DNA of 46,837 nt from Acidobacteriota bacterium (GCA_016190995.1 JACPPN010000226.1:1-46837); one strand, 5' to 3'. Numbered from the stretch's first letter, positions 19,768-46,837 are shown. Made by a program: numbers and translations. The notes: generated by a model not told the origin, from the letters alone.

Positions 19768-19780
19768 AAGCACGGCTAGA

Positions 19781-22666
<2,886 letters not shown>

Positions 22667-22750
22667 CTCCGTCCCACTTTGCCTCAGCCGGAGAGACCGC
22701 GCGCGTCCCGACACGTTGAAGGAATGGTCAGGAAGGCTCGTGGTGCCGTC

Positions 22751-22770
22751 AGAGCAAACGCTATACCGAA
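22751..22770 (-). promoter_or_regulatory. Candidate sigma-54 (-24/-12) promoter upstream of the kinase/regulator operon
   Basis: The minus strand reads TTCGGTATAGCGTTTGCTCT. The GG and TTGC elements have the canonical spacing of TGGCAC-N5-TTGCW. It lies about 85 nt upstream of ATG 22666. The -24 half is imperfect (CGGTAT). Confidence 0.3.
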
Positions 22771-22901
22771 TTGGATCCGAACCCCGGACCACGTTTCACC
22801 TTCTGTTTCAAGGTTTTAGCTTCATTGCCCCGAACGGGACGCAGCCCGCCATTCAACACGTTGAAGCCGTACTTCAAATTGATGAATCCTCCAGAAGCGC
22901 C

Positions 22902-22959: not shown

Positions 22960-24882
22960 TCAGAATCTGACGAGCAGGCCCCCCACGATTCGCTTCGGCG
23001 GACGCACGACGAGCAGCTCATCGTACACGCTGCTGTCGACCTGCGGCTCGCGAAACAGGTTCCTCACCGCCACCAGGACTTCCCATTCGGTGTTGGTGAA
23101 CTGCATGAACGGGAGTCCCTGCTTCACCTGCACGTCGAATCGCGAATCCAGCCCGGGCCGCGTGACCGCTTCGTCTCGCGTGAACGCGCTGTTGATCTTG
23201 TAGACAACGAACAGGCGCGTCGCGGTTTCCGGTATCTCGGTCTCGACTGCGGTCGTGACATCGTGGAACTTCTCGCGTTCGGCGCGCGCGAGGGTTGGAG
23301 CCCACATGGTCAGCACCGCAGCCTCGGGCGAGATCGTCCAACGCGCGCTCGTGCGCGTGTAGTTGACCGACCCACGAAAACGCCTGGACAGATTGTGCTG
23401 CAGGGCGAAGGTCCATCCGTCCGTATCCGCGCTTCCCGGATTGCCGACGAAATAGTGCCCGAGCGCCGCGCGAGCGGTCTCCGTGTCGCCGACGCCGAAG
23501 AGGGTAGCGAGCTGATCGTCGACCTGTTGATAGAACCTGCGCACGCCAATCACGGCGTCCTTGCCGAGATCGCGCTCGATCCCGAATTCGACGTGACGAG
23601 TACGCTCCGCGCGGAACGAGGAGGCGGGAGTGACAGGGGCGAAGGTGCGTTCCGGCGGCAGCCACACTCCAGAGACCGCCGGCGGCAGGAACTCTTCGGC
23701 GCCGGGCGCCACTCTGCGCTGCGAGACCGCACCGACCAGGCGCGTGTGCGCCGCGGGCGTGAGGCTCACACCAATGCGGCCGCCGAACAGCCCGTGGCCC
23801 TCGAGATAGTCGTATCGCGCGAATCGGGCGCCGTAATCGACCGTCACGCGACGCGAAATCGCCCACGTATCGTCGCCGTACACGGCACCGACGTTGCGGC
23901 TGCCGTCGGTCACGGCCGCCAGCGCGGCAGGGTTGCCCCCGTCGTACCGCTGCGTGCTGTACGACATGCCGACGCTGTAGGAATGGGCGCTGGGCGCCCG
24001 ATGCGTGTAGGCGCCGGCCAGAATCCATGACGACACGTCGCCCTGTGTCATCGCGCCCTGCACCACCCACTCGGCATGATCGCTCGATGACAGTCCGAGC
24101 GAGAGGAACGCGACGTTGCGTGGTAGGCCATCGGCCGAGAAGAGATCCTGCGGCCGGTCGAACGAACTCGTGGTCAGGAGATTGAGCTCGCCGGAGATCG
24201 GGAAATCGTTGACGAGCCCCGTCATGCGTGAGGCGGCGAACCTGTGTGACAGGAGGGTCGGTGGAGCGTCGCCGGCCCAATCGGTGTCCCCGGCACTCGC
24301 CGCCACCACGCTGAAATCGGTGATCTCCTTCAACACCGAGCGCTTGACATGCCGCAGACGCCAGGCCGATTCGCTGTGGTTGTCCTTCTCGCCGCTGCTG
24401 TCCTCAGCCGACGGATCCGCCTGATCGGCCGAAGGCGGGCCGACCACGCCCGCTGCCAGGATCGGTCGCGCGGGAACGGCGCCGGACGTCGCAACCGGTT
24501 GCGGACCGCTGGTGCGATGCAGCCTGAGGGATGAGAGTGACCGAAGGCTCGGACGCACGTCGATGATCGTCCGTTGCGAGGCGGCAAAGCCGGGCAGATG
24601 CGCGCGCAGGAGATAGGGGCCCGGCGGGAGCCGCCGAAGTGTGAACCGCCCATCGGCGTCGGTAACGGCAAACGCCATCGTCACGCCGAGCGCCGACACC
24701 ATGGCGCCCCGAAGCGGCGCGCCCCGGTCGTCGATGACCGTGCCCTGAATGGTGCCGGCGACAGTGGTCGCGGCGTCGGTCACGCGCTCGGGCGAGGAGC
24801 GCGCGGGCTCGTCGGCGAACGCCCCGGTTACCGCAAGCGCGGCGACGGTCGCCGAGACCACCATCCACTTGATGCGAAGCAT
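22960..24882 (-). CDS. Outer-membrane beta-barrel protein with N-terminal carboxypeptidase-regulatory-like domain (TonB-dependent-receptor-like; no plug recognised)
   Basis: 640 aa with a signal peptide (..VAALAVTGAFA/DEP). The CarboxypepD_reg-like segment reads GTVIDDRGAPLRGAMVSAL..TDADGRFTLRRLPPGPYLLRAHLPGF. A long beta-rich body ends in the aromatic terminus ..GGLLVRF. Confidence 0.75.
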   Translation of the reverse strand: MLRIKWMVVSATVAALAVTGAFADEPARSSPERVTDAATTVAGTIQGTVIDDRGAPLRGAMVSALGVTMAFAVTDADGRFTLRRLPPGPYLLRAHLPGFAASQRTIIDVRPSLRSLSSLRLHRTSGPQPVATSGAVPARPILAAGVVGPPSADQADPSAEDSSGEKDNHSESAWRLRHVKRSVLKEITDFSVVAASAGDTDWAGDAPPTLLSHRFAASRMTGLVNDFPISGELNLLTTSSFDRPQDLFSADGLPRNVAFLSLGLSSSDHAEWVVQGAMTQGDVSSWILAGAYTHRAPSAHSYSVGMSYSTQRYDGGNPAALAAVTDGSRNVGAVYGDDTWAISRRVTVDYGARFARYDYLEGHGLFGGRIGVSLTPAAHTRLVGAVSQRRVAPGAEEFLPPAVSGVWLPPERTFAPVTPASSFRAERTRHVEFGIERDLGKDAVIGVRRFYQQVDDQLATLFGVGDTETARAALGHYFVGNPGSADTDGWTFALQHNLSRRFRGSVNYTRTSARWTISPEAAVLTMWAPTLARAEREKFHDVTTAVETEIPETATRLFVVYKINSAFTRDEAVTRPGLDSRFDVQVKQGLPFMQFTNTEWEVLVAVRNLFREPQVDSSVYDELLVVRPPKRIVGGLLVRF

Positions 24883-24898: not shown

Positions 24899-25960
24899 CT
24901 ACGAACCGACGACGCTGAACGTGACGTTCCGGGTCAGGGCAGCCCCAGACTTATTGTCCGCGATCTTGATCTCCAGACGAAAATCTCCGTCCGGAAAGCT
25001 CGCGAGCGGGACCGACTGTCCCGCGACGAGCTGGTGGCCGGCCGTGATGTCGAACGCGGGCGGCAGCGTCTGCTCGTTGAACTTCTGCGGCTCGGTCTTG
25101 TTGAAGTACTTCTCACCCTCTGCCGTCTTGTGGTGGAAGGTGTACTCGATGGTGAGATCGGGCTTCTTGTCTACCCCGATCGACGGGTTGTAGACGAGGA
25201 AGATGACGGAAAGCTCTTCGTTCTTGCGGAACGCCGAGTCGGCCGCGGGCACGATTTCGGTCATGCCCAGCGCATAGGGGTGCTCGATCTGCTGCTCCTT
25301 CGCGACCGGCTCCTTCAGCGGTTCGACCCGATCCGCGAGAATGACCGTGCTCGTGGCCAGCTCGTTGGTCCAGAAATCCGGAATCGTCAGCGCGTGCTTG
25401 ACCACTGTCGTCTTCAGCGCGGTCGCCGCGGCAGCAGGGCCACGCTCTTTCAGGGCGACGTAGGCCTCGTAGTCGCCCGGGGCGACCGCAAATGCGCGGC
25501 TGAGCCGCATGGCTTGCCCCGCGGTCGCTTTCAGGTCGAGAAAGTGCACATCGTCAAACGGGTATGCCGTCGCGCCGCCCTTCTCGTTTTTCTCGTCGTC
25601 GTTCTTTCCCGGCTGGCTGATCGGGGCAGACCCTCGTTGGACGACGCGCACATACATGGCGTAGGCACCTGGGGGCGCGCCGTCGAGCGTCAGGGTGAAG
25701 GGGACGTAGGTTTTGCCTTCGAGCGCCTTCAGAAAATCATTGGTCCACGTGACGCGAATGTCCGATGGGGCCGTCTGACCCGTCATCGCCGCGTCGACAA
25801 GCTTCACCAAGCTTTGGACTTCCTGGCGCTGCGCCTGGTCGAGCTTTTGCTGTTGTCGCTTGTCGTCTTTCTTTTGATCGGAAGGGGCCCCCGCACCGAC
25901 TGCGGGAGCGAGCACCAAAGCCAGCAGGAGTAGGGGGAGCCTCCCGCGCTGTCGCACCAT
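24899..25960 (-). CDS. Secreted beta-rich protein of unknown function
   Basis: 353 aa. Signal peptide MVRQRGRLPLLLLALVLAPAVGAGA, then a Lys/Gln-rich linker, then two beta-sandwich-like halves. It lies 16 nt upstream of the OMP gene, which has a GGAG Shine-Dalgarno. Confidence 0.7.
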   Translation of the reverse strand: MVRQRGRLPLLLLALVLAPAVGAGAPSDQKKDDKRQQQKLDQAQRQEVQSLVKLVDAAMTGQTAPSDIRVTWTNDFLKALEGKTYVPFTLTLDGAPPGAYAMYVRVVQRGSAPISQPGKNDDEKNEKGGATAYPFDDVHFLDLKATAGQAMRLSRAFAVAPGDYEAYVALKERGPAAAATALKTTVVKHALTIPDFWTNELATSTVILADRVEPLKEPVAKEQQIEHPYALGMTEIVPAADSAFRKNEELSVIFLVYNPSIGVDKKPDLTIEYTFHHKTAEGEKYFNKTEPQKFNEQTLPPAFDITAGHQLVAGQSVPLASFPDGDFRLEIKIADNKSGAALTRNVTFSVVGS

Positions 25961-34837: not shown

Positions 34838-35524
34838 TTACGCGGCCCTCCGCACATCGTCTTCGACGCGTCCGTCCCGGAGGTGAATGATGCGATGCGC
34901 GTAGGCGGCGACGTCAGCTTCGTGGGTTACGAGCACGATGGTGTTGCCGGCGTCATGAAGCCGCTGGAAGAGCGTCATGATCTCCATGCCGGTCTTCGAG
35001 TCGAGGTTGCCGGTTGGCTCGTCGGCGAGGAGGATCGAAGGATTGTTCACCAGCGCCCTCGCGATCGCCACGCGCTGGCGCTGGCCGCCGGAGAGCTCGT
35101 TCGGGCGATGCATCAGGCGGTCGCCGAGCTCCACGCGCTGCAGCGCGCCCGTCGCTTTGGCCTGGCGTTCCTTGGCCGCAATGCCGGCGTACACCAGCGG
35201 CAGCTCCACGTTGTGGAGCGCCGTGGCGCGCGGCAGCAGGTTGAAGGTCTGGAAGACGAAGCCAATCTCCTCATTGCGGATCCGCGCCAGCTCGTCGTCG
35301 TTCATCTGCGACACCTGCTTCCCGTTCAGCAGATACGAGCCTCGCGTCGGCGTGTCGAGGCAGCCGATGAGATTCATCAGCGTCGACTTACCCGACCCCG
35401 AAGGTCCCATGATGGCCACGTACTCGCCGCGCTGAATCGAGACCGACACGCCTTGCAGCGCGTGGATCTCTTCCGCGCCCATCACGTACGTCTTCCAAAG
35501 ATCTTGTGTTTCGATGAGTTCCAT
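34838..35524 (-). CDS. MacB/LolD/FtsE-type ABC transporter ATP-binding protein
   Basis: Start chosen at ATG 35524 ([27 protein letters not shown]..). Walker A is GPSGSGKST, the signature is LSGGQRQR, Walker B is [12 protein letters not shown]. No FtsX-type permease gene is adjacent. Confidence 0.88.
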
Positions 35525-35730
35525 ATGAGTGAACCCGCAGCGGGACACACGGGGTCAGCGGCCTTGTGACTCAATACGATAGTCGACACCTCGGGGTTCA
35601 GTCCAACAGGTGGCAGCCCGGGTAGTGGGTCCCTTTGAAAGGAGCCCACGACCGCAGCCCGACCTCCGAGCGCTCGGGCTGGCTCTCCTGGTCAGCGGAA
35701 TGCGCCGCGCCGGCTGTTGCGGCCCACCGA

Positions 35731-36537
35731 CTACTGTTTTGTCTCGAGCGCGCGCAGATTGCGGGCGATGGCCTTGCCGACGGCAGGGGCGTCCGCGGGA
35801 ACGAGCGCGGTCCAGTCGCGCACGTCGACCGGCAGCAGCGCCACGTTCGCGGTCCCACCGCGCCGACGGCGCTGGCGCGTGATCTCGCCGCCGATGACGC
35901 CGGCGGGCGCGAGCGCCGTGCCCAGGAGGAAGACGCAGACGGGCGTGCTGGTTTCGGCTGCGTACCGCGCCGCCAGAGGCCAGATCTCTTCCACGGCCTG
36001 GGGATCCACTGACACGACGAACTTCCCGAGGACCGCGAGCGCGGGAATCGCGGAGCGGAACAGCATCCGCCTCCCACGCGGGACGTAGCCGACATCGAAT
36101 CCCTTCGCGAGGCGCTCGTCGACGGCGCCCATTTCGATTGATACGGCGTCGCGCAGCCGGTTCAGCACGACCTTTCTCAGGAACTCGTCGGGAACGAGCC
36201 GGTCGGCCGGGCGTGGCGGGACAGGACGCGGCGTCGCGGCCGCAGGCTCGACAGAGGTCGCCGCATCGGGTGGCGTGGGGTCCGTTTGCGCCGCCTCCGA
36301 TTCCTGCCTCCGCATGGCCTCGAGCAGCCGGTTGTATTCCGTTCGTTGCTGGGCATCCATGAGCGTGCTGTAGGCCCTCGTCAGGTCCGCGGCGCGTGTC
36401 GCCGCCAGAGCCTGGAATTCGCTGCCCAGATGGTGCACTTTGTCCGGGTGATATCGCGCGATCTCGCGCCTGAAGCTGCGCTTGATCTCCTCGTTCGACG
36501 CCGACGGGTCCACGCCAAGCAGCTCGTAGTAGTTCAT
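35731..36537 (-). CDS. J-domain (DnaJ-like) protein with an uncharacterised C-terminal domain
   Basis: 268 aa. The J domain MNYYELLGVDPSASNEEIKRSFRREIARYHPDK carries the HPD motif. A Pro/Ala linker and a roughly 150-aa C-terminal domain with no motif I recognise follow. It starts 64 nt downstream of the ATPase gene. Confidence 0.8.
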   Translation of the reverse strand: MNYYELLGVDPSASNEEIKRSFRREIARYHPDKVHHLGSEFQALAATRAADLTRAYSTLMDAQQRTEYNRLLEAMRRQESEAAQTDPTPPDAATSVEPAAATPRPVPPRPADRLVPDEFLRKVVLNRLRDAVSIEMGAVDERLAKGFDVGYVPRGRRMLFRSAIPALAVLGKFVVSVDPQAVEEIWPLAARYAAETSTPVCVFLLGTALAPAGVIGGEITRQRRRRGGTANVALLPVDVRDWTALVPADAPAVGKAIARNLRALETKQ

Positions 36538-36601
36538 CGCGGAAGGGGACGGTCAGGACCGGGAACGAACGTCCATTGGCACTTATCGGATGGGACCGTC
36601 G

Positions 36602-38644
36602 TCAGGATGAGGACTTCTTGAACTCGGCGACGTTCGAGACGGGAAGCTCGAAGGGCTTCTTGTCGTCGCGCAGCTTGCGCGTCTGACGGGGAGCGGTCGT
36701 GGTGGCACAATGCGGGCAGAAGTTCCAGCCAGGCTGCAGGTTACGCCCGCACTTCGGGCATCCGCCGCTCAGGCGGCGGCCGCAGTGCGGGCACACCACG
36801 AAGTCCATCGCCACGGCACCACCGCACCCGACGCACAATGTCCGCATCTCGCGGACCTCGGTGACGACCCGCAGGAGCTCTTCGGGAGTCGTGATCCCGC
36901 TTTTCACCTTCGCGACGCCGTCCTCACCCAGGCTGATCATCCCCGACGCCAGCGCGACGTCGCGGATGGCATCCTCGCCCGCGCGCTGCGCAATCATGCG
37001 GCGCATCTTGTCGGTGACGCGCATGACTTCGTAGATGCCGACGCGACCTCGATACCCCGTGTGATTGCACTGATCGCATCCGACCGCCCGGTAGAAGGCG
37101 AGGCTCGCGGCGTCTTCCTCGGTGATGTTGAGCGCGCGCAGCGTCTCCGGCGACGGCGTGTACAGCCGGCGGCAGGCCGGACAGAGCCGGCGCACGAGGC
37201 GCTGCGCCAGGACGCCCACGAGCGCCGAGGCGATGATGTAGGGCTCCATCTCCATGTCCATCAGCCGCGTAATCGTGGACGGCGCGTCATCGGTGTGCAG
37301 CGTCGAGAGGACGAGGTGGCCCGTCTGCGCCGCCTGCATCGCGATCTTCGCGGTCTCGTGGTCGCGAATCTCGCCCACGAGGATGACATCCGGGTCCTGG
37401 CGCAGAATCGCCCGCAGGGCGGTCGCGAACGTCAGCTTCGCCTTTTCGTTGACCTGCGTCTGATTGACGCCGGCGACCTGGTATTCGATGGGATCTTCGA
37501 TCGTGATGACGTTCGTCTTGCTCGACTTCACCGACGTGAGCGCCGATGCCAGACTCGTCGATTTCCCGCTGCCTGTCGGGCCGACCACGAGGATCATCCC
37601 GTGCTGATGGCGCAGGAAGAATTGCAGCTCCGCCTGTGAGACGGAGGACAGACCCAGTTCCTCGAGCGGCGGCGCCCCTTTCCGGTTGTCGAGCACCCGC
37701 AGCACGATCTTTTCGCCGTACATCGTGCGCAGCGTCGAGACACGGAAGTCGACGTCCTTGCCATCATCGGTCTTCACGCGCAAGCGGCCGTCCTGCGGCA
37801 GCCGTTTCTCGGCGATGTCCATGCTCGCCATGATCTTCATGCGAGCGACCAGCCCCTCGTGGACCCACTTGGGGAGCTCCATGACTTCCTTCAGCAAGCC
37901 GTCGAGGCGGTGACGAACGAGGACGCCCCTTTCCATCGGCTCGATGTGGACGTCGCTGGCACGGCTCGTGATGGCGCTGTTCACCACCAGATCGACGAGA
38001 TCGATGATCGGCGCGGTGTCGCTCTTCTCCTTGGCGGCCGCGGCGGGCGTCGTCGAGACCTCGAAGACGTCTTCGTCGATCTCGCGATAGACGGATGAAG
38101 CGGCGCCTTCGTAGGCCGCGCTTCCGCCGGCCGTGCCCCTCGAGCGGAACGTGGAATGCGGTTGAACGGCGAGGCCGGCTGCGGCCTGCGTGGCGGTCTG
38201 ACCTGTCCGGACGAGCGCCCTGTCCGGATAGCAGTTCGCAATCGCGTCGAGGATGTCGGAACGCGTCGCGACGACCTGCTTGATCCGATAGCCGGTCTGG
38301 AACTCGAGATCCTGAACGAGGCTGAAGAGCAGCGGATCCGACATCGCAACCGTGAGCAGATTCTTCTCGAGCTTCACGGCGACGCAGACCCGTTTGAGCG
38401 CGACATCCTTGGGAATCAGGACAACGGCCGCGGGATCGGGCAGCTCCTCGCTGAGGCTCACGTAGGGGAATCCGAGCTGGTAGGCGAGCGCTTTGGTGAT
38501 CTGCTTCTCGGTCGCCAGATTCATGCGGACGAGCACGGCCCCGAGACGCTCGCCCGTTCGCTTGTGCTCAGCAAGCGCGAGCTGGAGATCGTCCTCGGTA
38601 ATGAGGCCGGCCTGGATCAGACATTCACCGATTTTCTTCCGCAC
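36602..38644 (-). CDS. GspE/PilB-family secretion ATPase with N-terminal MshEN-type domain and extra C-terminal double zinc ribbon
   Basis: 680 aa. Walker A is GPTGSGKST, with Walker B/Asp and His boxes (ILVGEIRDHETA..LVLSTLHTDDA). The family tetracysteine CPAC..CDQC is present. The N-terminus has two 24-residue MshEN-like motifs. The last roughly 78 aa add four more CxxC pairs. Confidence 0.9.
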   Translation of the reverse strand: MRKKIGECLIQAGLITEDDLQLALAEHKRTGERLGAVLVRMNLATEKQITKALAYQLGFPYVSLSEELPDPAAVVLIPKDVALKRVCVAVKLEKNLLTVAMSDPLLFSLVQDLEFQTGYRIKQVVATRSDILDAIANCYPDRALVRTGQTATQAAAGLAVQPHSTFRSRGTAGGSAAYEGAASSVYREIDEDVFEVSTTPAAAAKEKSDTAPIIDLVDLVVNSAITSRASDVHIEPMERGVLVRHRLDGLLKEVMELPKWVHEGLVARMKIMASMDIAEKRLPQDGRLRVKTDDGKDVDFRVSTLRTMYGEKIVLRVLDNRKGAPPLEELGLSSVSQAELQFFLRHQHGMILVVGPTGSGKSTSLASALTSVKSSKTNVITIEDPIEYQVAGVNQTQVNEKAKLTFATALRAILRQDPDVILVGEIRDHETAKIAMQAAQTGHLVLSTLHTDDAPSTITRLMDMEMEPYIIASALVGVLAQRLVRRLCPACRRLYTPSPETLRALNITEEDAASLAFYRAVGCDQCNHTGYRGRVGIYEVMRVTDKMRRMIAQRAGEDAIRDVALASGMISLGEDGVAKVKSGITTPEELLRVVTEVREMRTLCVGCGGAVAMDFVVCPHCGRRLSGGCPKCGRNLQPGWNFCPHCATTTAPRQTRKLRDDKKPFELPVSNVAEFKKSSS

Positions 38645-38673
38645 GCTGCATCCTCGAACGCTGTCGATTCCGT

Positions 38674-40392
38674 CTACTTGAACGCGCCAAGCGTCGTCTT
38701 CATCGCAACCCGCCGGACCCCACCCGAAGGACCGCGAAGCAGCACCGCGTCGCGGGTGATGTCAACCACGACCGCTGTTCCCACGCTGTCGCCGATTCCA
38801 ACAATCTGGTTGTCCACGACCGCCAGCCTTCGATCCTGTGAAAACAGGATCGAGCGAACGACCGGCTCACGGGCCCGAGGCATCTCCGCCCTGCGCGGTG
38901 TCTGCAGAGGCGCCGCTTCCTCACCCGGCAGTTCCTGACGCGAAATCGGCGTGTCGACAGCACGATTCCGGCGCGGCCCCCCGACCGCCGACGCCGCACG
39001 CCGCGCCTTGGATGCCGTTCCCACGGTTCCGCCCACCGATCCCCGATCCCCGATCCCCGAGGTCTGTCCGCGCCACAACGGCGCCGCCACGAGCTCGGGT
39101 CCGGGAACAGGATCTTCCGGCTGCGGCAGCTCGGCTGACGGCGCCGTCGCCGAAGTCGGCCGCGACCTGACGCGATCATCCGTCGTGTCACCGCTCGCGG
39201 AAGGGTTCGCGGGCTGAAGCAGCTCGGCGTGCTCCTGCGCGCGGGACGTGTCGGCGTTGCTCCGCTGCTCGACTCTCGTTGCCGGGCTCCGGTCGACGGA
39301 CAGGCGCGCCATCCTGGAAGCCCGCGCCGTCCCGTTGGGCCAGAACACGCCGAACGCAATGAGCAGGGATGCAGCCAGCACGCCGCTTGCCATGGCGACG
39401 ATCGTGCCGCGCCCCATCGGGACCGGGCGCCGGGCAGCCCAGAGATTCACGGCCGGTGTGACAGCCGCAATCGCCCACGCCACTTGAAGCCGCGCCACCT
39501 GCTCGCGGAACTGCGCGCGCGGCTCGGGCAGCGACGCCACATCCAGGCCCCTGGGCGAATCGAGCGTCTCGACCTCCAGATCCAGTTCCTGGATGAGCGG
39601 CATCGTCAGCGACCGCAGCTCCGGAAGGTCGCCGCACGTCATCACCTGATCAACGCGATACCCGAACGTATTTCGGACGGACTGAAACAGCTCCCCGAGC
39701 TGCGGTCCCAGCGCCGACGCAAAGCGGTATCGGCCGAGCAGCCGATCTTCAGTCGGGGCCGGCTCCGGTCCATACGTCCAGGTCAGGTCGCGGCCGGCGA
39801 GCAGGCGCGTCCCCCGCACGATCGCGACGCTCCCGCCGGTCTGATTCATCGCCAGGTACGCGGTCACGGCGTCCGGTGGGTCCGCCCGCAGGACCTTTCC
39901 GAGGCTGCCAAGCCCGAGCACCGGCGTCGCAAGGGAATCGATGACGAAGCCGGCGTCAATCAACGGCCGCAGGCGCTTGCGCATGTCGCGCTGGGCGATG
40001 GCGGCAAAGAGCGCTTCCCGGCGCGGGATTGTGCCCGGCGTGTCGTTCACGCTCGTAACCGCGAGACCGACCGACGCGCGGTGAGCCCACGCGCGAAACC
40101 CGGCATCCTCTTTCGCAGCGATATCGCGCGCATACGCCATCTCATCGGCGATGCCCGGGGGCATCGGCCACACGCGGTGGGTGCTGCGAAGACCGTGCAC
40201 GACGACACGGGCGTGCTTCGGGAATCGACCCGACGCGATAATCTCTTTCAGCGCCGTGCGGAGCGCCGCTGGCTGGCTCGACCCAGACGCAATCGTGTCG
40301 AACGCGGTTATCCGAGTTCCCGCGCCCGCAGGGTGCACGAGTACGAGGCTGCAGCGGGAGGGGGTCAGCTCGATCCCCAGGGTGCCGGGCAT
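38674..40392 (-). CDS. PilM/GspL-like actin-fold protein fused to a TM helix, low-complexity linker and GspB/PilP-like C-terminal domain
   Basis: 572 aa. The N-terminal roughly 330 aa show PilM-like patterns (LGIELTPSRCSLVLV.., ..AYLAMNQTGGSVAIVRGTRLLAGRDLTW..). One TM helix follows (GTIVAMASGVLAASLLIAFGVFW). The C-terminus reads VVRSILFSQDRRLAVVDNQIVGIGDSVGTAVVVDITRDAVLLRG. The assignment is by pattern only. Confidence 0.6.
   Translation of the reverse strand: MPGTLGIELTPSRCSLVLVHPAGAGTRITAFDTIASGSSQPAALRTALKEIIASGRFPKHARVVVHGLRSTHRVWPMPPGIADEMAYARDIAAKEDAGFRAWAHRASVGLAVTSVNDTPGTIPRREALFAAIAQRDMRKRLRPLIDAGFVIDSLATPVLGLGSLGKVLRADPPDAVTAYLAMNQTGGSVAIVRGTRLLAGRDLTWTYGPEPAPTEDRLLGRYRFASALGPQLGELFQSVRNTFGYRVDQVMTCGDLPELRSLTMPLIQELDLEVETLDSPRGLDVASLPEPRAQFREQVARLQVAWAIAAVTPAVNLWAARRPVPMGRGTIVAMASGVLAASLLIAFGVFWPNGTARASRMARLSVDRSPATRVEQRSNADTSRAQEHAELLQPANPSASGDTTDDRVRSRPTSATAPSAELPQPEDPVPGPELVAAPLWRGQTSGIGDRGSVGGTVGTASKARRAASAVGGPRRNRAVDTPISRQELPGEEAAPLQTPRRAEMPRAREPVVRSILFSQDRRLAVVDNQIVGIGDSVGTAVVVDITRDAVLLRGPSGGVRRVAMKTTLGAFK
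39036..39060. repeat. Heptanucleotide tandem repeat (CCGATCC x3.6) inside the PilM/GspL-like CDS
   Basis: Plus strand CCGATCC CCGATCC CCGATCC CCGA. On the minus strand it encodes ..SGIGDRGSVG.. in the linker. Confidence 0.85.
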
Positions 40393-40482
40393 GGCCTATA
40401 AGGATGTCGGCCTAAGCCGCTCTAAACGTTAAATTTGCGCGAAATGGCGCGGTGCCGTGTCACGCGCCTCGAGCGGGTAACC

Positions 40483-40488
40483 ATTATA
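40483..40488 (-). promoter_or_regulatory. Perfect TATAAT -10 hexamer upstream of the PilM/GspL-like gene
   Basis: The minus strand reads GCGGGCTATAATGGT about 90 nt upstream of ATG 40392. No good -35 element. Confidence 0.3.
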
Positions 40489-40590
40489 GCCCGCGCTGCC
40501 CGGCGACCGTTTCCTCGGTGGCGTGCGGGAGAAGATTTCGCCTCGTCGCTGCAGCTCTGCGCATCTTCGCCCGATGAATCCAATAGCCCT

Positions 40591-41691
40591 ATGAGTTACG
40601 GGGACCGAACCGTCGAGCTCAGGGAGCTCGTCGCCGACCGGATCGAGGGACGCCGCGGGGCGCTGACCAACGATCTGGCGGACACCCTGAGCTCCCATCA
40701 CGCCGGTGTGCGGGAACATCGATCGTGGGAGCATGTCGCCGACCTGCTGGTGGGATTGATCATCGCCAGCGTCCGCTTCAACGGCGTCGATGCTGAGACG
40801 CCGGGCGTTGCGGACTTGCTGCACAGTCTCCCTGGCGGGCTGAGCACCGGGGAGATCTTCGAGGCGGTTCACTGCTGTGAGCGGACGATCCTCGATGAGC
40901 TAGCGGTCGACGAAGTCGTGGGCGCGCTGTCCGAAGGCTGGGGTGCCGTCGCCCAGCTCGCCCGCCGCGGATCGTTCATGATCGTCGCGGCGCTGGCGGA
41001 TCGACGGGCCGATCGGTCGGCCGAAGCAGGTCTGCGCGATCAGCTCACGACGCTGCTGGCGCGGCCCGTCTTCGAGATCGCCCTCGCCCACGAGATCAAC
41101 CGCTCGCTGCGCCACGAGCATCCGCTCTCGCTGATTCTGTTCGACGTCGACGATCTGGCGGGCATCAACACCCACCACGGACCGCGCGTCGGGGATCAGG
41201 TGCTCGAACGGTCGGGCATTCTGGTCAAGCGGTTCTTCCGCAATCACGATTGGGTCGCGCGCCACAACGGCGACTCGATTGCGGTGCTGCTGCCGGAAAC
41301 GGCGGTGGAAACCGCGGCCGATCTGGCCGAACGGGTCCGGCGGATGATCGAGCAGCGCCTTGCGCTCGTCGATTACCGCACCGATCGGCGCCTCATGATC
41401 ACCATCAGCGCGGCCGTCGTCGGGACCAACAGTCCCGAGCACGAGTTCGAGGCGGCCGAGGTGCTGCGGACGGCGGAAGACGCCGTGGCGCGCGCAAAGC
41501 ACACCGGCATCGTGGAACGCGTGGAGCTCTTGGCGACCGCGGTCACCCTCCTCGGTGCTGCGGGGCTGCTCAACTGTCCGCTGCGCGTGATTCGAAGGCT
41601 CGTGCGGCACCGGCAGGTAGCTGCCGTCCGGCGCGGCCGGCACTACTACATCGATCGCGGGTCGTTGGAGAGGTACCAGGCGGGGTTGTGA
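40591..41691 (+). CDS. Degenerate GGDEF-domain protein (NGDSI, intact RxxD I-site) with helical N-terminal domain and C-terminal excisionase/MerR-type HTH
   Basis: Start preferred at ATG 40591 (MSYGDRTVELREL..); the track ORF starts at TTG 40435 with an Arg-rich extension. The GGDEF-family core is LILFDVDDLAGINTHHGPRVGDQVL..RNHDWVARHNGDSIAVLLPE. The C-terminal HTH_17-like segment is LLGAAGLLNCPLRVIRRLVRHRQVAAVRRGRHYYIDRGSLERY. Confidence 0.75.
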   Translation: MSYGDRTVELRELVADRIEGRRGALTNDLADTLSSHHAGVREHRSWEHVADLLVGLIIASVRFNGVDAETPGVADLLHSLPGGLSTGEIFEAVHCCERTILDELAVDEVVGALSEGWGAVAQLARRGSFMIVAALADRRADRSAEAGLRDQLTTLLARPVFEIALAHEINRSLRHEHPLSLILFDVDDLAGINTHHGPRVGDQVLERSGILVKRFFRNHDWVARHNGDSIAVLLPETAVETAADLAERVRRMIEQRLALVDYRTDRRLMITISAAVVGTNSPEHEFEAAEVLRTAEDAVARAKHTGIVERVELLATAVTLLGAAGLLNCPLRVIRRLVRHRQVAAVRRGRHYYIDRGSLERYQAGL

Positions 41692-41801: not shown

Positions 41802-42149
41802 ATGTCGCGCGCCCTGGTCAACCGGCTGTTCGAGGTCGTCGATACCGCCAATTGGGAGGCGATGCCCGCGCTCTTTCACAGCGACGTCGTGTACGAGCGG
41901 CCCGGCTACGCCCCATTCGTGGGCATCGATCGACTCCTGCAGTTCTACCGCCACGAACGGGTGATCGCAGGCGGTAAGCACCATATCGACAAGATCGTCG
42001 TGGATGGCGACGCGTGCGCCTGCTGGGGCACGTTTGTGGGCGTCAGTCGGGATGGCGCTCCCTTGCAGGAGGCCTTCGCGGACGTCTACGCCATCGAGGA
42101 CGGGAAGATCAGGAAGCGAAAATCGTTCTTCTTTCGACCGGCGGTCTAG
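41802..42149 (+). CDS. SnoaL/NTF2-like fold protein
   Basis: 115 aa. ..NRLFEVVDTANWEAMPALFHSDVVYERPGY....DVYAIEDGKIRKRKSFF is a typical nuclear-transport-factor-2/ketosteroid-isomerase-like layout. Confidence 0.7.
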   Translation: MSRALVNRLFEVVDTANWEAMPALFHSDVVYERPGYAPFVGIDRLLQFYRHERVIAGGKHHIDKIVVDGDACACWGTFVGVSRDGAPLQEAFADVYAIEDGKIRKRKSFFFRPAV

Positions 42150-42182: not shown

Positions 42183-44156
42183 TCACCCCGCCTCCTCCTC
42201 GTATTTCTCCTTCAGCTTCGCGACGACGGCGGGATCGGCCAGCGTTGTAGTATCGCCCAGCGTCTTCCCTTCCGCGATGTCGCGCAGCAGGCGGCGCATG
42301 ATCTTGCCTGATCGCGTCTTCGGCAGATCCGCCGCGAAGAGGATCTCGTCAGGTCTCGCGATCGCCCCAATCTTGTGGACGACGTGCTCCTTCAACTCGT
42401 CGGCGAGAGCGGGGTTCGCCTGCGTCCCTTCCTTGACGGTGACGAACGCGGCAATCGCCTGCCCCTTGAGCTCGTGAGAGCGTCCCACGACTGCAGCCTC
42501 GGCGACCCGCGGATGATCCACGAGCGCGCTCTCCACCTCCATCGTGCCGATGCGATGCCCCGCGACGTTCAAGACATCGTCCACGCGTCCCAGCAGCCAG
42601 AAGTAGCCGTCCTCGTCCACCTTCGCGCCGTCTCCCGTGAAGTAGGTGGAGTCGTTCCAACGAGTCCAGTACTGCCGGACGTACCGCTCGGGGTCGCCGT
42701 AGATGCCCCGCAGCATCGCGGGCCAGGGCCGCGTGATCGCAAGGAGACCCCCGCCGACCTCCACGCGATCGCCCGCCGTGGTCAGGACCGCGGCGCTGAC
42801 GCCGGGGAACGGTCGCGTCGCCGATCCGGGCTTCAGGGTGGTCACGCCCGGCAGCGGGGTGATCATGATCATGCCGGTCTCGGTCTGCCACCACGTGTCG
42901 ACGATGGGGATTCGGCTGCCACCGATGTTCGCGTAGTACCAGATCCAGGCTTCGGGATTGATCGGCTCGCCCACTGTGCCGAGCAGCCGCAGGCTATCGA
43001 GCTTGCAGCGCTTCGGCCAGTCGGTTCCCCAGCGCATGAACGCCCGGATGGCCGTCGGGGCGGTGTAGAAGATCGTGACGCCGTAGCGTTCGACGATCCG
43101 CCAGAATCGATCTTTCTCCGGCCAGTCGGGGGCGCCTTCGTACATCACAACGGTCGCGCCGTTTGCCAGCGGCCCGTACACGACGTAGCTGTGACCGGTG
43201 ACCCACCCGATATCCGCGGTGCACCAGTACACATCCTCATCTCTCAGATCGAAGACCCACTTGGTGGTCGCATAGATTCCGACGAGATAGCCGGCGGTGG
43301 TATGCACGATGCCCTTGGGTTTTCCCGTCGTGCCGGAGGTATAGAGGATGTAGAGCATGTCTTCGGCGTCCATCCTCTCGGGCTCGCACCCCGATGGCGC
43401 GTCCTCCATGAGACGGTGATACCAGTGATCGCGCCCCTCTTGAATGTGCACCGGAATGGGCGCGCCGGCCTGCCGTTGGACCACGATGACGTGCCGAATC
43501 GAGGGCGCCTCACGAATCGCTTCGTCCGCGGTGCGCTTGAGTGGAACGATCTGACCCCGACGATATCCGCCGTCGGCCGTGATCAGGACTGCGGCTTGCG
43601 CGTCGTTGATGCGATCGCGTAACGACTCGGCGCTGAAGCCGCCGAACACGACGCTGTGCACGGCGCCGATGCGCGCCGACGCCAGCATGGCGACGGCGAG
43701 CTCGGGAATGAGCGGCAGATAGATCGCGACGCGGTCGCCTCGCGCGACGCCGAGCGATTTGAGCACGTTGGCGAACGACGTCACCTCGCGATACAGATCG
43801 AAGTAGGTCAGGGTGCGGTGATCGCCCGGCTCTCCCTCCCAGATGATCGCGGCCTTGTTCCGCCGCGCCCCGCGGACGTGGCGGTCGATGCAATTCACCG
43901 TCACGTTGATCTGGCCGCCGACGAACCACTTGGCGTGCGGCGGGGTCCAGTCGAGCACCCGCTCCCAGGGCCGGTACCATTCGAGCTCCCGCGCCCACTC
44001 GTCCCAGAACCCCTCCGGGTCCGCAGCCGCCCGCTCGTAGACTCCCGCGTCGGCAACGTGAGCCGTCGTGGAAAACCAGGGCGGCGGCGGAAAACGGCGG
44101 TCTTCTTTGAGAAGGGCGGCGAGTTCTGCTGGGAGCTGGGGCGAAGAGTCAGGCAT
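42183..44156 (-). CDS. acs: Acetyl-CoA synthetase (AMP-forming)
   Basis: 657 aa. Contains ..[17 protein letters not shown].., the AMP-binding motif [11 protein letters not shown] and ..[18 protein letters not shown]. Confidence 0.95.
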
Positions 44157-44476: not shown

Positions 44477-46837
44477 CTACTCCCGGATCAGGCGCGCGCG
44501 CAGCGTCTCGATGCGGGTGCGCACGCGACCGGCAAGATCGGCATGATCGATGGTGGTGTGCGCGAGAAACTGACGGTAATGCTCGATCGCCGGTGCCACT
44601 TCGCCGGTCTGCTCGTAAAGCAGCGCGAGATTGTAGTGACAGGCCGCGCTGCGCGGGTTGATCTGCAGGGCTCGAAGCAGGGTCTCTCGCGCTTCGTCGC
44701 TTCGCCCCTGCGCCTTCATCGCGAGCGCGAGGTTGATCATGGATTCGATGTTGCGAGGCTCGGCAGCGAGCGCCGCGCGGAACTCTGCGGTGGCTGATTC
44801 CGGATTGCGATCGGCAAGAAGCGCGACGCCGAGATTGTTGTGCGCCTTCCCATAGCGGGGATCGACGAAGATCGCGCGCTGAAATTCGCGGATCGCGCTG
44901 CCCACCATGCCGCGCTCCTGATAGAGGACGCCCAGGTTGTTGTGTGCCTCCGCGTTCAGCTCGTTGCGCGCGATGACGGCGCGATAGTACGCCTGCGCCC
45001 GTTCAAAATCACCGGCGCGCTGGTAATACAGTGCGAGCGCGAAGTCGTCCCTGATGCCGGGCACCGACATGGTGGGATCCGGCGGGGCCGGCGCCGCCGC
45101 CGTCGATGCCGCGGGCCGCGGCGGCATACCGGGCGAGGGCTCTCGCCGATCAGCAGGCGGCCAGGAAGGCGACGGGCTGCCCACCGTCGGCCGCGTGGTG
45201 CGCGCAGGCGCGGCGGGCGGCGTGTCGATTGACGTCCGCGAGGTCCCGTGACGCGCCAACCGCGTCGGCTCCTGCTCCGCATCCGCCGGCTTCGACTGTT
45301 CGGCACGGGCGGATGTTGCCGGTTGACGGCGCGGCGTCCGGCCCGGAGCTGTACGCGGCTCCGCGACCGCCTCGACGGGTCTCTCGGCAAGTGGCTGCTC
45401 GACGCGTGCCGTGCGGCCTGGTTGAGGCGGAACCGGCGCGCCGACCTCGGGCGGCCTGACCATCGGGGGCGCCGCCCGCTCAGCCTCGCGAGTTGCCGTG
45501 CGCTTCGCTTGCGCTGGTTGCGAGGACGGCGTCGCTCGGTCCGCGGCGCGCGGCGGTTCCGGCGTCCTCTCGATGGGCCTCGGACTTGCGACGCTCGGCG
45601 AGCGCGGCGCTGGCGTCGGCACCCGCCGTGCGGCCGACTCCGACGAAGCAGACAGGTGTTCAGGTGGCAGATAGATGTCCGTCCTGCGCGCGCGCGGGCC
45701 CAGCGGCCCTGGTTGCACGCGTGCGGGCGGCGCCGACTTCGATGGCACTGTTGCCGCAGGCCGCGCCTCAGCAGCCAGCTCATCGGGACGTGAGTAGGCG
45801 CTGGCTTTCGGGTTCGGCGTCCCCGGTTTCGCGACTGATATCTCGGCGGCTGACGATGTCGCGGGCAACCCGGCAACCCGATCTTCTGTAGACGCAGGTT
45901 TCGAAGGCGTTGCTGCGGGCTTTGCGGGTTCCGGCGCCAGGTAAATGTCCGTTCGATGCCCAACGATCGCCGTCGTCCCCGGCTGCGTCGGCGCAGGGGC
46001 GGAGCGAGTCGCCACAGGCCTCGCCGGCTCAACGCGTGGGCTCGTCTGCGACGCCGGAACCGAGGGTCTCGCAGCTACCGCTTCCCGCGCAAGATGAACG
46101 TCAGTCGTGCGGGCGCGCCGCGCAGCCGGTCCGGGCTGAGGACGTTGATCCAGCGGGATCGTCCGCTGCGACAGAGCGGCCGCCGGTTCCGGTCGCAAGT
46201 AGATGTCAGTCGTTCGCGCCGATGCACGAGGGAGCCGCGACGGCGCAGGTGTCGCCTGAGCAAGCGGCCCGGCCGCGGCCGGCTTCGAAGGCGCTGCCGC
46301 GGCCTGCTGTGATGAGACTTCCGGCGGCAGTGAAGGCGCCGCTCTGGTGGCAGGCTTCGCCAGCCCGGGAGCCTTGAATGGCTCCGGCGTCAGGTAGATA
46401 TCGTGCGATCGCACCGCCGCTGCCACCCGGCTTTCGGTCGGCTTGGCAGGAGCCGCCGCAGGGGTCGTTCGCGTAGTTCTCGGCTCCGCCGGGCTCACAG
46501 GTTGTGGTGCAGGGACCTTTCGCTCGGCTTCGTAGGGAGGGAGTTCCCGTTGGACGGGAAGCTCGGGCCGGAGGTAGATGTCCGAGCGGCGCGCGATGAT
46601 TGCCGGACCCCTGGCAGGCTTCGACTCACTCCGCGATGCGGAGGGAGGCGCTTCACGCGTTGGCGGTTCGACCGTCGCCGTCTCGGATGGCGTGGGACGA
46701 TAACCCGTGTCGCGCCTCGGCCCCGAAGGGGTGGACGGGGAGGGCCGCGGACCGAGTCGTGCGACACGGCCAACCGCAGGACCGTACATCAGGCGATCGC
46801 GAACCGCCGACACCCCTACCGCCACAACGATCAGGGC
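44477..46837 (-). CDS. Membrane-anchored(?) Pro/Ala-rich repeat protein with C-terminal TPR domain; N-terminus beyond window end
   Basis: Track ORF 44477..46825 starts at GTG, but the frame stays open to nt 46837 (ALIVVAVGVSAV.., a TM-like stretch). The first roughly 590 aa are disordered and P/A/R/T/S-rich, with six RxTDIYLxPE motifs. The C-terminal roughly 190 aa are TPR repeats (..AHNNLGVLYQERG.., ..AHNNLGVALL.., ..CHYNLALLYEQTG..). Confidence 0.75.
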   Translation of the reverse strand, partial: ALIVVAVGVSAVRDRLMYGPAVGRVARLGPRPSPSTPSGPRRDTGYRPTPSETATVEPPTREAPPSASRSESKPARGPAIIARRSDIYLRPELPVQRELPPYEAERKVPAPQPVSPAEPRTTRTTPAAAPAKPTESRVAAAVRSHDIYLTPEPFKAPGLAKPATRAAPSLPPEVSSQQAAAAPSKPAAAGPLAQATPAPSRLPRASARTTDIYLRPEPAAALSQRTIPLDQRPQPGPAARRARTTDVHLAREAVAARPSVPASQTSPRVEPARPVATRSAPAPTQPGTTAIVGHRTDIYLAPEPAKPAATPSKPASTEDRVAGLPATSSAAEISVAKPGTPNPKASAYSRPDELAAEARPAATVPSKSAPPARVQPGPLGPRARRTDIYLPPEHLSASSESAARRVPTPAPRSPSVASPRPIERTPEPPRAADRATPSSQPAQAKRTATREAERAAPPMVRPPEVGAPVPPQPGRTARVEQPLAERPVEAVAEPRTAPGRTPRRQPATSARAEQSKPADAEQEPTRLARHGTSRTSIDTPPAAPARTTRPTVGSPSPSWPPADRREPSPGMPPRPAASTAAAPAPPDPTMSVPGIRDDFALALYYQRAGDFERAQAYYRAVIARNELNAEAHNNLGVLYQERGMVGSAIREFQRAIFVDPRYGKAHNNLGVALLADRNPESATAEFRAALAAEPRNIESMINLALAMKAQGRSDEARETLLRALQINPRSAACHYNLALLYEQTGEVAPAIEHYRQFLAHTTIDHADLAGRVRTRIETLRARLIRE

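Follow-up and report, generated by a model that had tools for sequence, protein, structure and literature searches.

The locus examined here lies in a 46,837-nt stretch of DNA (the window) from a soil acidobacterium of the lineage Vicinamibacterales. It raises the question of what a PilB/GspE-family ATPase, a PilM/GspL-like anchor and a J-domain protein do together when no pilin, platform or secretin gene stands beside them. The three co-directional minus-strand genes, described in an earlier note with spacings of 29 and 64 nt, were borne out by the ORF listing, and the coding-type GC3 of their ORFs was 0.80–0.85. The terminator scan of the operon gave no convincing terminator between the trio genes. 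Promoters, terminators and inverted repeats were also sought across the operon and in the intergenic region between the divergent genes, where the sole element above background was an 11-nt inverted repeat at 40526–40573. The genes of the locus are the following:

35731–36537, minus strand: J-domain protein, 268 aa (ORF, Pfam, alignment)
36602–38644, minus strand: PilB-type extension ATPase, 680 aa (ORF, Pfam/NCBIfam profiles, motifs)
38674–40392, minus strand: PilM-fold/HR-like protein, 572 aa, bitopic (ORF, AlphaFold2 model, Foldseek, hydropathy)
40591–41691, plus strand: degenerate GGDEF and HTH_17 protein, 366 aa, divergent from the trio
42183–44156, minus strand: acetyl-CoA synthetase gene (acs), between the TPR and PilM-like genes
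44477–46837, minus strand: TPR protein of the secretin sub-cluster, MshN/PilW-like, with its N-terminus past the window end

The second gene had been said to encode a complete ATPase, and this proved correct. The T2SSE core matched with 443 bits, and the Walker A, Asp box, Walker B, His box and tetracysteine motifs were all intact, following each other as GPTGSGKS, EDPIEY, DPDVILVGEIRD, GHLVLSTLHT and CPAC...CDQC. Besides a variable linker, which bears an 'EDVFE' motif, the protein contains these parts:

aa 4–56: MshE-type c-di-GMP-binding motif (NF053729)
aa 57–142: MshEN domain
aa 207–592: T2SSE core (PF00437)
aa 604–647: double zinc ribbon
aa ~662–677: conserved C-terminal tail 'ELPxSNVAEFK'

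The ATPase was nearest to the T4aP motors PilF and PilB (523, 473 and 457 bits), compared with about 392 bits for GspE, and its scores against the PilB and GspE equivalog models were below the cut-offs (584.8 versus 675.65 for TIGR02538, and 561.1 versus 630.25 for TIGR02533). The MshE-type motif exceeded its cut-off of 38 bits with a score of 62.6, and the N-terminal region aligned to the c-di-GMP domains of MshE (5htl) and PilF. This motif was kept in all full-length ATPase orthologues aligned except the one in locus L008, where the N-terminus is divergent or garbled. The match above the curated threshold predicts that the ATPase senses c-di-GMP. Mean identity among the J-associated ATPases (the window protein and 13 others, full alignment) was 92% in the N2 domain and 85% in the C-terminal ATPase domain, and every catalytic motif was retained in the six that were examined motif by motif. 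A linker motif, 'L[VM]RRxxxDVFE', was limited to the J-associated ATPases and takes the form EIDEDVFE in the window.

The AlphaFold2 model of the 572-aa protein matched the proposed layout, in which a PilM-like domain is followed by a TM helix, a linker and a beta module:

39463–40392, minus strand: PilM-fold cytoplasmic domain, aa 1–310, confident in the AlphaFold2 model
39352–39411, minus strand: TM helix, aa 328–347 (AlphaFold2 model, hydropathy)
38878–39345, minus strand: disordered A/R/P/S-rich linker, aa ~350–505 (AlphaFold2 model, composition)
38698–38865, minus strand: periplasmic six-strand GspB/HR-like domain, aa 510–565 (AlphaFold2 model)

The PilM/GspL fold proposed for the N-terminal domain was recovered by Foldseek, which ranked PilM first, then FtsA, and then GspL/EpsL. 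PilM structures, led by 2ych, 5eou and 3jc8, made up the top 10 matches (E 5e-17 to 2e-13, target-normalised TM-score 0.56–0.67), and the match to EpsL/GspL, with E of about 1e-8, was below those to PilM and FtsA. The 572-aa protein itself had no Pfam or NCBIfam match, and a precomputed match to PF11104 (PilM) was present in two members of its family. The profile of the whole family returned only low-complexity noise from PDB sequences, e.g., ZipA and Tom20. The homologues numbered 65, with 368 clusters at 50% identity (E ≤ 1e-30).

The suggested likeness of the C-terminal module to GspB/HR-type domains held for the fold, the six strands and an arginine, while all its sequence matches to Pfam T2SSB were below threshold. 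The six strands, at residues 512–564, were modeled with pLDDT of 93–97. The T2SSB profile (PF16537) gave a sub-threshold match in 18 of the 22 family members, with a best E of 3.6e-5, and 15.9 bits for the window protein, compared with the cut-off of 28.4. The profile of the C-terminal domain found no HR domain among PDB sequences, where its best match, cytidylate kinase, was judged spurious, and hhalign of this profile against E. coli K-12 GspC and HofP gave nothing. Two residues are near-invariant: Arg521, which lies between the first and second strands, and Asp535, some 14 residues further on. They parallel the R144–E155 pair of OutB, which has a conserved arginine in its beta1/beta2 loop (PMC9239104). 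GspB is usually encoded beside gspA, and its binding partner is the secretin N0 domain (PMC9239104, PMC4098917). On the evidence of sequence and model, the C-terminal module resembles this GspB homology region, and because of this resemblance the 572-aa protein looks like a single-chain link from the ATPase to the secretin.

The 572-aa protein does not correspond to any single known component. PilM is a soluble protein that clamps an N-terminal peptide belonging to a separate PilN and is encoded in a pilMNOPQ operon, while here the PilM-fold domain continues into a TM helix of the same chain, and no PilN, PilO or PilP genes were found in the window or in the relatives' loci. GspL has a periplasmic ferredoxin-like domain and pairs with GspM, while the AlphaFold2 model of the 572-aa protein has a disordered linker and a beta domain instead. 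As compared to the T4aP system of PilM-N-O-P-Q and PilB, the PilM fold is the same, the ATPase is nearest to PilF and PilB, and the HR/PilP-type domain would touch the secretin; the differences are that the PilM-fold and HR-type domains are in one chain, and that PilN and PilO are absent. The T2SS likewise contains an actin-like ATPase-docking domain and a secretin N0-binding HR domain of the same types, but there they belong to two proteins, GspL and GspC, whereas here they are combined in one chain, in which the HR domain is the sole folded periplasmic domain.

The window inventory listed 32 ORFs of coding-type composition, 29 of which were scanned against Pfam. These data, together with a six-frame scan that found no prepilin motif in the window, confirmed the claim that the 46.8 kb contain no pilin, platform, PilN/O/P/Q, secretin or prepilin peptidase gene. 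In about 60 syntenic Vicinamibacterales loci, neither a platform gene (PilC/GspF/MshG) nor a prepilin motif was found within ~10 kb, no pilC, pilA or pilT was found near the trio, and the orthologues were never surrounded by complete T4P or T2SS loci. A literature search on Vicinamibacteria pili returned nothing relevant.

The designation of the trio as an orphan was upheld as regards platform and pilin genes, but it did not stand as regards the secretin, because secretin, GspA-like and TPR genes are located upstream in most relatives. In the ~60 syntenic loci the trio lies just downstream of genes for a secretin, a SPOR-domain AAA+ protein and a TPR protein. Of the 43 loci whose sequence reaches far enough upstream, 37 had both secretin and GspA-like genes. 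The AAA+ protein is GspA/ExeA/MshM-like, and the TPR protein is membrane-anchored. The AAA+ partner scored 288 bits against TIGR03015 and the best NCBIfam match of the secretin was MshL, with the MshL and GspA-family matches below equivalog cut-offs. As TIGR03015 was the best match of the AAA+ protein, the secretin, AAA+ and TPR genes were also considered as a PEP-CTERM/exopolysaccharide set. This assignment was set aside because TIGR03015 is the GspA/MshM family, and because a secretin would be unusual for exopolysaccharide export, which normally uses a different outer-membrane channel. Only acs separates the upstream secretin, AAA+ and TPR genes from the trio in most relatives. Since in locus L008, on a complete chromosome (OZ252293.1), the six machine genes are contiguous and acs is absent, acs is probably a passenger, and it was set aside as a machine part. 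The TPR gene of the window is 53–55% identical to the TPR genes located 3′ of the secretin and GspA-like genes in relatives, and because the window ends inside this gene of the conserved cluster, the secretin is probably located just past the window end. The earlier note had drawn no connection from this TPR gene to the trio.

Two known systems share this arrangement in part. The MSHA pilus locus of Vibrio consists of mshI-J-K-L-M-N-E-G-F and a pilin operon. The order of an MshL-like secretin, an ExeA-like AAA+ protein (as MshM), a TPR protein (as MshN) and an ATPase with an MshE-type N-terminus is the same here, while the MshG platform, MshJ/K and the pilin operon are missing from the locus, and genes for the J protein and the degenerate GGDEF-HTH protein are added. 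The GspA–GspB system (ExeA–ExeB; Aeromonas, Vibrio, and OutB of Dickeya) has the same single TM helix, Pro-rich linker and six-strand HR-like domain, and the same neighbors, which are a secretin and a GspA-family AAA+ protein with a periplasmic peptidoglycan-binding domain (PMC9239104, PMC4098917). To this GspB plan the 572-aa protein adds a full PilM/GspL-fold cytoplasmic domain of ~310 aa, which is present in none of the seven described GspB archetypes (PMC9239104). The cluster also differs from GspA–GspB in that the peptidoglycan-binding domain is of the SPOR type, the host is acidobacterial rather than gamma- or betaproteobacterial, and the cluster includes a PilB-type ATPase together with a J protein.

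The third gene encodes, as had been claimed, a J-domain protein, the J domain being its sole profile match. A long helix followed by a Pro-rich linker connects its two domains:

aa 2–69: J domain with HPD (PF00226, 53.9 bits)
aa 117–267: lineage-specific alpha/beta C-terminal domain

Profile matches indicated no G/F region, zinc finger or DnaJ C-terminal domains. The HPD motif was invariant across 42 aligned members of the family, which has a mean column identity of 58% and many invariant residues. J domains dominated the Foldseek list for the whole protein. For the C-terminal domain the matches were weak (AF2093, 2ph7, E 0.011; NucS, 2vld, E 0.06), with a weak PD-(D/E)xK-like fold match among them, and no nuclease function is claimed from them. 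When the C-terminal domain alone served as query in a word-indexed homologue search, it matched nothing but itself. The protein shares with the class C J adaptors DjlA, HscB and TopJ a J domain with HPD and a private targeting domain, and it differs from them in that its targeting domain is a lineage-specific alpha/beta domain and its gene is coupled to a PilB-type ATPase. A literature search for an association of PilB, MshEN and DnaJ found nothing relevant.

The divergent neighbor had been noted as a c-di-GMP-related gene. Its ORF opens at 40435, and the likely start is the ATG at 40591, which gives 366 aa, as in the orthologues. The A-site of the window protein is NGDSI rather than GG[DE]EF; of the 20 aligned orthologues, 19 have G[ED]D[SAG][IM], and L052, the deepest branch, has DANTV. 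As the A-site is degenerate in all orthologues, cyclase activity is implausible. The RxxD I-site, in the form R[TNLV]HD, precedes the A-site at the canonical distance in every orthologue, and the fusion of an HTH domain to the GGDEF domain is conserved among them. These features suggest that the protein is more likely a c-di-GMP receptor and transcription regulator than a cyclase.

The distribution of the genes showed which parts belong together. The GGDEF-HTH, ATPase and J genes were all present in 18 loci and all absent from 22, while partial sets comprised the ATPase alone in four loci and the J gene alone in one. On a neighbor-joining tree built from acs and ABC sequences, at least six concordant losses of the three genes were counted, the full set was present in the deepest branches, and the 18 species with the full set were spread over the tree. 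The ATPase, J and GGDEF-HTH genes are inherited together, and the set looks ancestral. The pattern of loci and the concordant losses also support the earlier proposal of a functional tie between the ATPase, the J protein and the c-di-GMP-related gene. Where the J and GGDEF-HTH genes were missing, each of the five full-length ATPases had at least one degenerate motif among Walker A, Asp box, Walker B and His box, and the J gene of L043, a locus without the ATPase, had HPD changed to RPD. About half of the species have intact genes for the PilM/HR protein, the secretin, the GspA-like protein and the TPR protein, and no local ATPase, hence the PilM/HR tether must have a role that is independent of the ATPase.

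The reading we prefer, which we consider about evenly poised between right and wrong, places the trio at the inner membrane and in the cytoplasm, as one half of a secretin machine that is specific to Vicinamibacterales, is related to MSHA-type pili and the T2SS and has a filament as its output. The other half would be the secretin, the GspA/ExeA/MshM-like AAA+ protein with SPOR and the bitopic TPR protein, encoded upstream and partly past the window. PilM is known to bind PilB, and GspL to bind GspE. By analogy, the 572-aa protein could serve as a single-chain alignment tether, whose PilM/GspL-fold domain would dock the PilB-type hexamer, whose disordered linker of ~155 aa would span the periplasm, and whose GspB-type HR domain would bind the secretin N0, as GspB, GspC and PilP do, so that one polypeptide would replace PilM-N-O-P or GspL plus GspC. 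Binding of c-di-GMP to the MshEN domain may turn the ATPase on, as in MshE. The private C-terminal domain of the J protein may recruit DnaK to the ATPase for assembly, activation or dismantling of the hexamer, with the linker motif and the conserved tail of the ATPase as candidate contact sites, and the GGDEF-HTH protein may sense c-di-GMP at its I-site and regulate the divergent operon. PilB/GspE-type hexamers transmit force via the PilC/GspF platform in the type IV filament superfamily, and to our knowledge all PilB-type motors characterized so far work through a platform. For this reason the platform (PilC/MshG) and the pilins are expected elsewhere in the genome, and the mechanical output would most likely be a type IV filament. 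As no platform gene or prepilin motif is located within ~10 kb in the ~60 loci, the filament is assumed rather than seen.

The absence of platform and pilin genes from these loci could also mean that the PilB-type ATPase, its tether, the GspA-like AAA+ protein and the TPR protein act on the secretin itself, as an elaborated ExeAB-type device that inserts it through peptidoglycan or gates it under c-di-GMP and Hsp70 control. The direct joining of ATPase-docking and secretin-binding folds in one chain is consistent with such a device, and the HR domain and GspA-like partner are hallmarks of GspAB secretin assembly (PMC9239104, PMC4098917). However, the secretin, GspA-like, TPR and tether genes persist in at least 16 species without the ATPase, so that secretin assembly can do without it. 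Because it is also established that hexamers of this type act through a platform, we regard this explanation as unlikely.

It is unlikely, too, that the ATPase, J and GGDEF-HTH genes are mainly a c-di-GMP signaling module, in which the ATPase would be a PilM-scaffolded, nucleotide-dependent sensor with transcriptional output via the HTH domain. Such a role would fit the two predicted c-di-GMP receptors in each co-inherited unit, which are the MshEN domain and, in the GGDEF protein with its dead A-site, the RxxD I-site, as well as the fusion of the HTH to the GGDEF domain, and PilB of M. xanthus has reportedly been proposed to signal to exopolysaccharide production. On the other hand, the ATPase adjoins a predicted secretin-binding tether, and the J-associated ATPases are highly identical in their N2 and C-terminal domains, with catalytic motifs kept in the six examined. 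The decay of these motifs after loss of the J and GGDEF-HTH genes argues for selection on ATP turnover and mechanical work.

Quite improbable is a further variant, in which a type IV filament-family ATPase operates with neither pilins nor platform. Seated on the single-chain PilM/HR tether and under the control of c-di-GMP and, via the dedicated J protein, of Hsp70, it would act directly on the secretin together with the GspA-like and TPR partners, gating it or driving non-filament export, and such an output would be new among motors of this family. That the module is a functionless relic of an ancestral MSHA-like pilus locus is very doubtful, since the repeated independent losses, the five species with degenerate ATPases and the one J gene with RPD are countered by the intact window genes with their coding-type GC3, complete catalytic motifs and conserved HPD, by the conservation of the J family, and by the presence of the full set in 18 species over the tree.

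If the trio is indeed half of a secretin machine with a filament output, one flexible tether would be able to take the place of the several proteins that form the alignment complex in pili and T2SS, and it could serve as a minimal system for studies of motor–secretin coupling. The dedicated J protein would then be the first genomic case of Hsp70 control for PilB-type motors, as we know of no earlier one for this motor family. Vicinamibacterales are an abundant and almost uncultured soil lineage, in which the module, having two predicted receptors for c-di-GMP and lacking a cyclase, could be relevant to attachment to surfaces in the soil. The series of presence, decay and absence over the species provides a natural experiment on the dependencies among the parts.

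The TPR partner is the only member of the secretin cluster visible inside the window. Its TM segment lies right at the end of the window, its TPR domain is C-terminal, and it also has a disordered P/A-rich region of ~590 aa with six 'RxTDIYLxPE' motifs.

The region includes the following genes:

38674-40392, minus strand, ORF of the 572-aa PilM/HR protein
36602-38644, minus strand, ORF of the 680-aa ATPase
35731-36537, minus strand, ORF of the 268-aa J-domain protein
40435-41691, plus strand, GGDEF-HTH gene, a 418-aa ORF from TTG 40435 (ATG 40591 gives 366 aa)
44477 to the window end (46837), minus strand, TPR gene, with 53-55% identity to the TPR domains of relatives

The three minus-strand ORFs, separated by gaps of 29 and 64 nt, lie exactly where an earlier note, made from the sequence alone, had placed them. 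All three have the GC3-rich codon pattern typical of real genes (the window is 66% GC), and a scan of the operon found no convincing terminator between them. When 29 of the 32 listed ORFs of coding-type composition were scanned against Pfam, no pilin, platform, PilN/O/P/Q, secretin or prepilin peptidase was found in the window, and looking for the prepilin cleavage motif in all six frames gave nothing credible in the window or in 58 related loci, which confirmed the absence of these components from the window that the earlier note had reported. The other window genes are housekeeping ones (purine synthesis, glycolysis, methylmalonyl-CoA mutase), together with Opp and MacB-type ABC ATPases, a sigma-54 two-component pair and a TonB-type receptor. 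At 18220-22792 (minus strand) a large sensor kinase (PDZ, 7TM HisKA_7TM, GAF, PAS, HisKA/HATPase) overlaps or abuts an NtrC-type sigma-54 response regulator, and a 353-aa protein without a Pfam match (24899-25960) adjoins a CarboxypepD_reg/TonB-dependent-receptor-like protein (22960-24882).

The same note had described the trio as an orphan, but most of its relatives carry secretin, GspA/ExeA-like AAA+ and TPR genes in one syntenic locus. This locus was the same for every homologue of the 572-aa protein with a readable contig. A scan of GTDB species representatives using two exact peptide patterns, which more distant hosts may escape, gave 51 loci, each belonging to Vicinamibacterales or to an unclassified Acidobacteriota MAG. 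The common order is ino1, MJ1491-like, secretin, GspA/ExeA-like AAA+ with SPOR, TPR protein and acs (acetyl-CoA synthetase), then (GGDEF-HTH, opposite strand), PilM/HR protein, (ATPase), (J protein) and ABC ATPase, where the genes in parentheses are absent from some loci. In the locus of the complete chromosome OZ252293.1 (L008) acs is missing, and secretin, AAA+, TPR, PilM/HR, ATPase and J protein are encoded by six contiguous co-directional genes. The NCBIfam comparison placed the secretin nearest to MshL, below the cut-off, and the AAA+ protein in the GspA/MshM family (TIGR03015, 288 bits versus a cut-off of 324), while the TPR protein resembled PilW, Tgl and PrsT. In these bitopic TPR proteins the N-terminus, with a conserved VLATLGY, is followed by a TM helix, and a Pro-rich linker leads to the TPR domain. 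Because the window edge falls at the TM segment of its TPR protein, the synteny indicates that the AAA+ and secretin genes should lie just outside the window, past the TPR gene.

The window TPR ORF also contains six copies of the motif R-x-[TSH]-D-[IV]-[YH]-L-x-[PR]-E, for example RTTDIYLRPE (45659-46591, minus strand), which are spaced 35-90 residues apart in a disordered P/A-rich region of ~590 aa between the TM segment and the TPR domain. A single similar motif, DLYLRPEAP, is present in the L008 TPR protein, and the repeated motif may serve in docking. In nearly all relatives acs (window 42183-44156, minus strand) lies inside the cluster, between the TPR and PilM-like genes; its flanking gaps in one related locus (L001, 8050-9999) are just 2 and 1 nt, which suggests co-transcription with the cluster there. 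Between acs and the GGDEF-HTH gene the window has a SnoaL-like gene (41802-42149, plus strand), for which tblastn matched the window alone and no related locus. A stand-alone ABC ATPase subunit (34838-35548, minus strand), best matched by the MacB N-terminal domain, LolD and FtsE, has no adjoining permease gene, and such a subunit is found 3′ of the cluster on the same strand, with ~80% identity, in most loci reaching far enough downstream.

To the 572-aa protein no Pfam or NCBIfam profile matched. A homologue search returned 65 relatives, and an exhaustive profile search with the family gave 368 clusters (50% identity, E<=1e-30), almost all of which share the full-length architecture. An AlphaFold2 model built from 45 homologues, together with composition for the linker, defined four parts:

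aa 1-310, N-terminal domain, confident
aa 328-347, TM helix
aa ~350-505, disordered linker rich in A/R/P/S
aa 510-565, six-strand beta domain, confident (pLDDT 93-97)

In Foldseek searches of the PDB the N-terminal domain matched PilM of Thermus, Pseudomonas and Myxococcus best (E 5e-17 to 2e-13), followed by FtsA and then by the EpsL/GspL cytoplasmic domain (E ~1e-8), and this ranking supports the PilM/GspL fold proposed previously. An insertion of ~55 residues in this domain (aa ~77-133, window 40000-40160), consisting of a helix and two strands of lower pLDDT, is common to few relatives (such as the homologues P0034 and P0060) and missing from most of the family; it is located where PilM and FtsA carry the 1C subdomain. 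The C-terminal domain matched Pfam T2SSB (GspB) below threshold in 18 of 22 family members (best E 3.6e-5), and its modelled six-strand layout is that of the OutB HR domain. The near-invariant R521 in the beta1/beta2 loop and D535, ~14 residues further on, echo the R144-E155 pair of OutB (PMC9239104). Since no match came from searching PDB sequences with a profile or from hhalign comparisons with GspC and HofP of E. coli, the assignment as an HR domain is probable rather than proven.

The 680-aa protein is a complete GspE/PilB-family ATPase, as had been proposed. Besides the T2SSE core (443 bits) it has an MshEN domain and, at the C-terminus, a double zinc ribbon, and its Walker A, Asp box, Walker B, His box and tetracysteine motifs are intact. 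The highest scores were obtained with T4aP extension motors (Thermus PilF 523 bits, Geobacter PilB 473, Myxococcus PilB 457), compared with ~392 bits for GspE, and the protein was below both the PilB and GspE equivalog cut-offs of NCBIfam. Its N-terminus aligned to the c-di-GMP-binding domains of MshE (5htl) and PilF, and the MshE-type c-di-GMP-binding motif was detected (NF053729, 62.6 bits, cut-off 38). The aligned full-length orthologues have the double zinc ribbon in common, and all except L008 conserve the tail ELPxSNVAEFKNQNR (window 36614-36661). Only J-associated ATPases conserve the linker motif L[VM]RRxxxDVFE, which reads EIDEDVFE in the window protein (~38062-38091). Judging from sequence, the tail and the linker motif are candidate short linear motifs for binding the PilM domain, the J protein or DnaK.

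In the 268-aa protein Pfam and NCBIfam detected the J domain only, in agreement with its earlier annotation. The HPD and many C-terminal residues are invariant in the aligned family, which is abundant in soil metagenomes. In the model (pLDDT 88.6) the J domain is followed by a long helix, after which a Pro-rich linker leads to a compact alpha/beta domain (117-267), for which the only fold matches were weak ones, to AF2093 and the NucS nuclease fold. The GGDEF-HTH gene probably starts at ATG 40591, which would make the 418-aa ORF ~52 codons too long; the 366-aa product matches the orthologue length and leaves a divergent intergenic region of ~198 nt. The GGDEF active site (A-site) is degenerate in all 20 aligned orthologues (G[ED]D[SAG][IM] in 19, DANTV in the related locus L052), and reads NGDSI in the window versus GG[DE]EF of the active type. 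The RxxD inhibitory site (I-site) is kept in all orthologues, and a C-terminal HTH (HTH_17 in the window) is present wherever the sequence is intact. These features are better read as those of a c-di-GMP receptor or regulator, which is more plausible than a cyclase.

Co-inheritance was counted in 45 loci bounded on both sides. In 18 loci GGDEF-HTH, ATPase and J protein occurred together, and all were missing from 22, while the ATPase was alone in four and the J protein in one (L043, 11214-12005), where RPD replaces HPD, as would fit decay once the partner ATPase was lost. The secretin, AAA+ and TPR genes accompanied the ATPase in 18 loci and were present without it in 16. On an approximate neighbour-joining tree from two markers only, acs and ABC ATPase, the full set was found at the deepest branches (L052 and the window) and also scattered elsewhere; parsimony required at least eight changes for the ATPase and at least six each for J and GGDEF-HTH, whose distributions were perfectly concordant. 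All five full-length ATPases without J and GGDEF-HTH (L009, L020, L030, L038, L039) carried substitutions that damage Walker A, Asp box, Walker B or His box (for example GPSVSGKT, DGAVEY, IGDLSG and KRQLVLAGLHA), also lacked the linker motif, and resemble pseudo-ATPases that are decaying or have been repurposed. Most simply, ATPase, J protein and GGDEF-HTH are read as an ancestral functional unit that was repeatedly lost, with the ATPase decaying once its partners were gone. The PilM/HR protein is intact and conserved in lineages without the ATPase, and therefore must have a further role, either for the secretin sub-cluster or for a motor whose gene lies elsewhere.

PilM and GspL dock PilB and GspE, respectively. 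Binding of c-di-GMP by the MshEN domain of MshE activates pilus assembly, and J domains recruit and stimulate Hsp70. The HR domains of GspB, GspC and PilP bind the secretin N0 domain, and GspA is the partner of GspB (PMC9239104, PMC4098917). From these family roles, applied to the components, folds, motifs, synteny and co-inheritance observed here, we infer that the 572-aa protein would be a single-chain tether from motor to secretin, and the ATPase a motor activated by c-di-GMP. The J protein would bring DnaK to the ATPase for assembly, activation or dismantling, and through the GGDEF-HTH protein c-di-GMP would control how the divergent operon is transcribed. Most likely the output would be a type IV filament, with platform and pilins encoded elsewhere. 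We give this model as a whole about an even chance. A pilin-independent device for assembling or gating the secretin is unlikely, and a mainly signalling role is equally so. A decaying relic is the least probable reading; the motifs that are damaged in the J-less ATPases are intact in the window protein.

The system shows the gene order of the MSHA cluster (MshL-M-N-E). Its GspA/GspB/secretin logic is that of T2SS, and it has both the PilM fold and the PilB-type motor of T4aP. By their defining features it belongs to none of these three. Its new features are the consistent lack of platform and pilins in the locus, the J protein dedicated to the ATPase, the degenerate GGDEF-HTH partner, the zinc-ribbon tail of the ATPase, and the fusion of a PilM fold to an HR-type domain, seen in none of the seven described GspB archetypes (PMC9239104).
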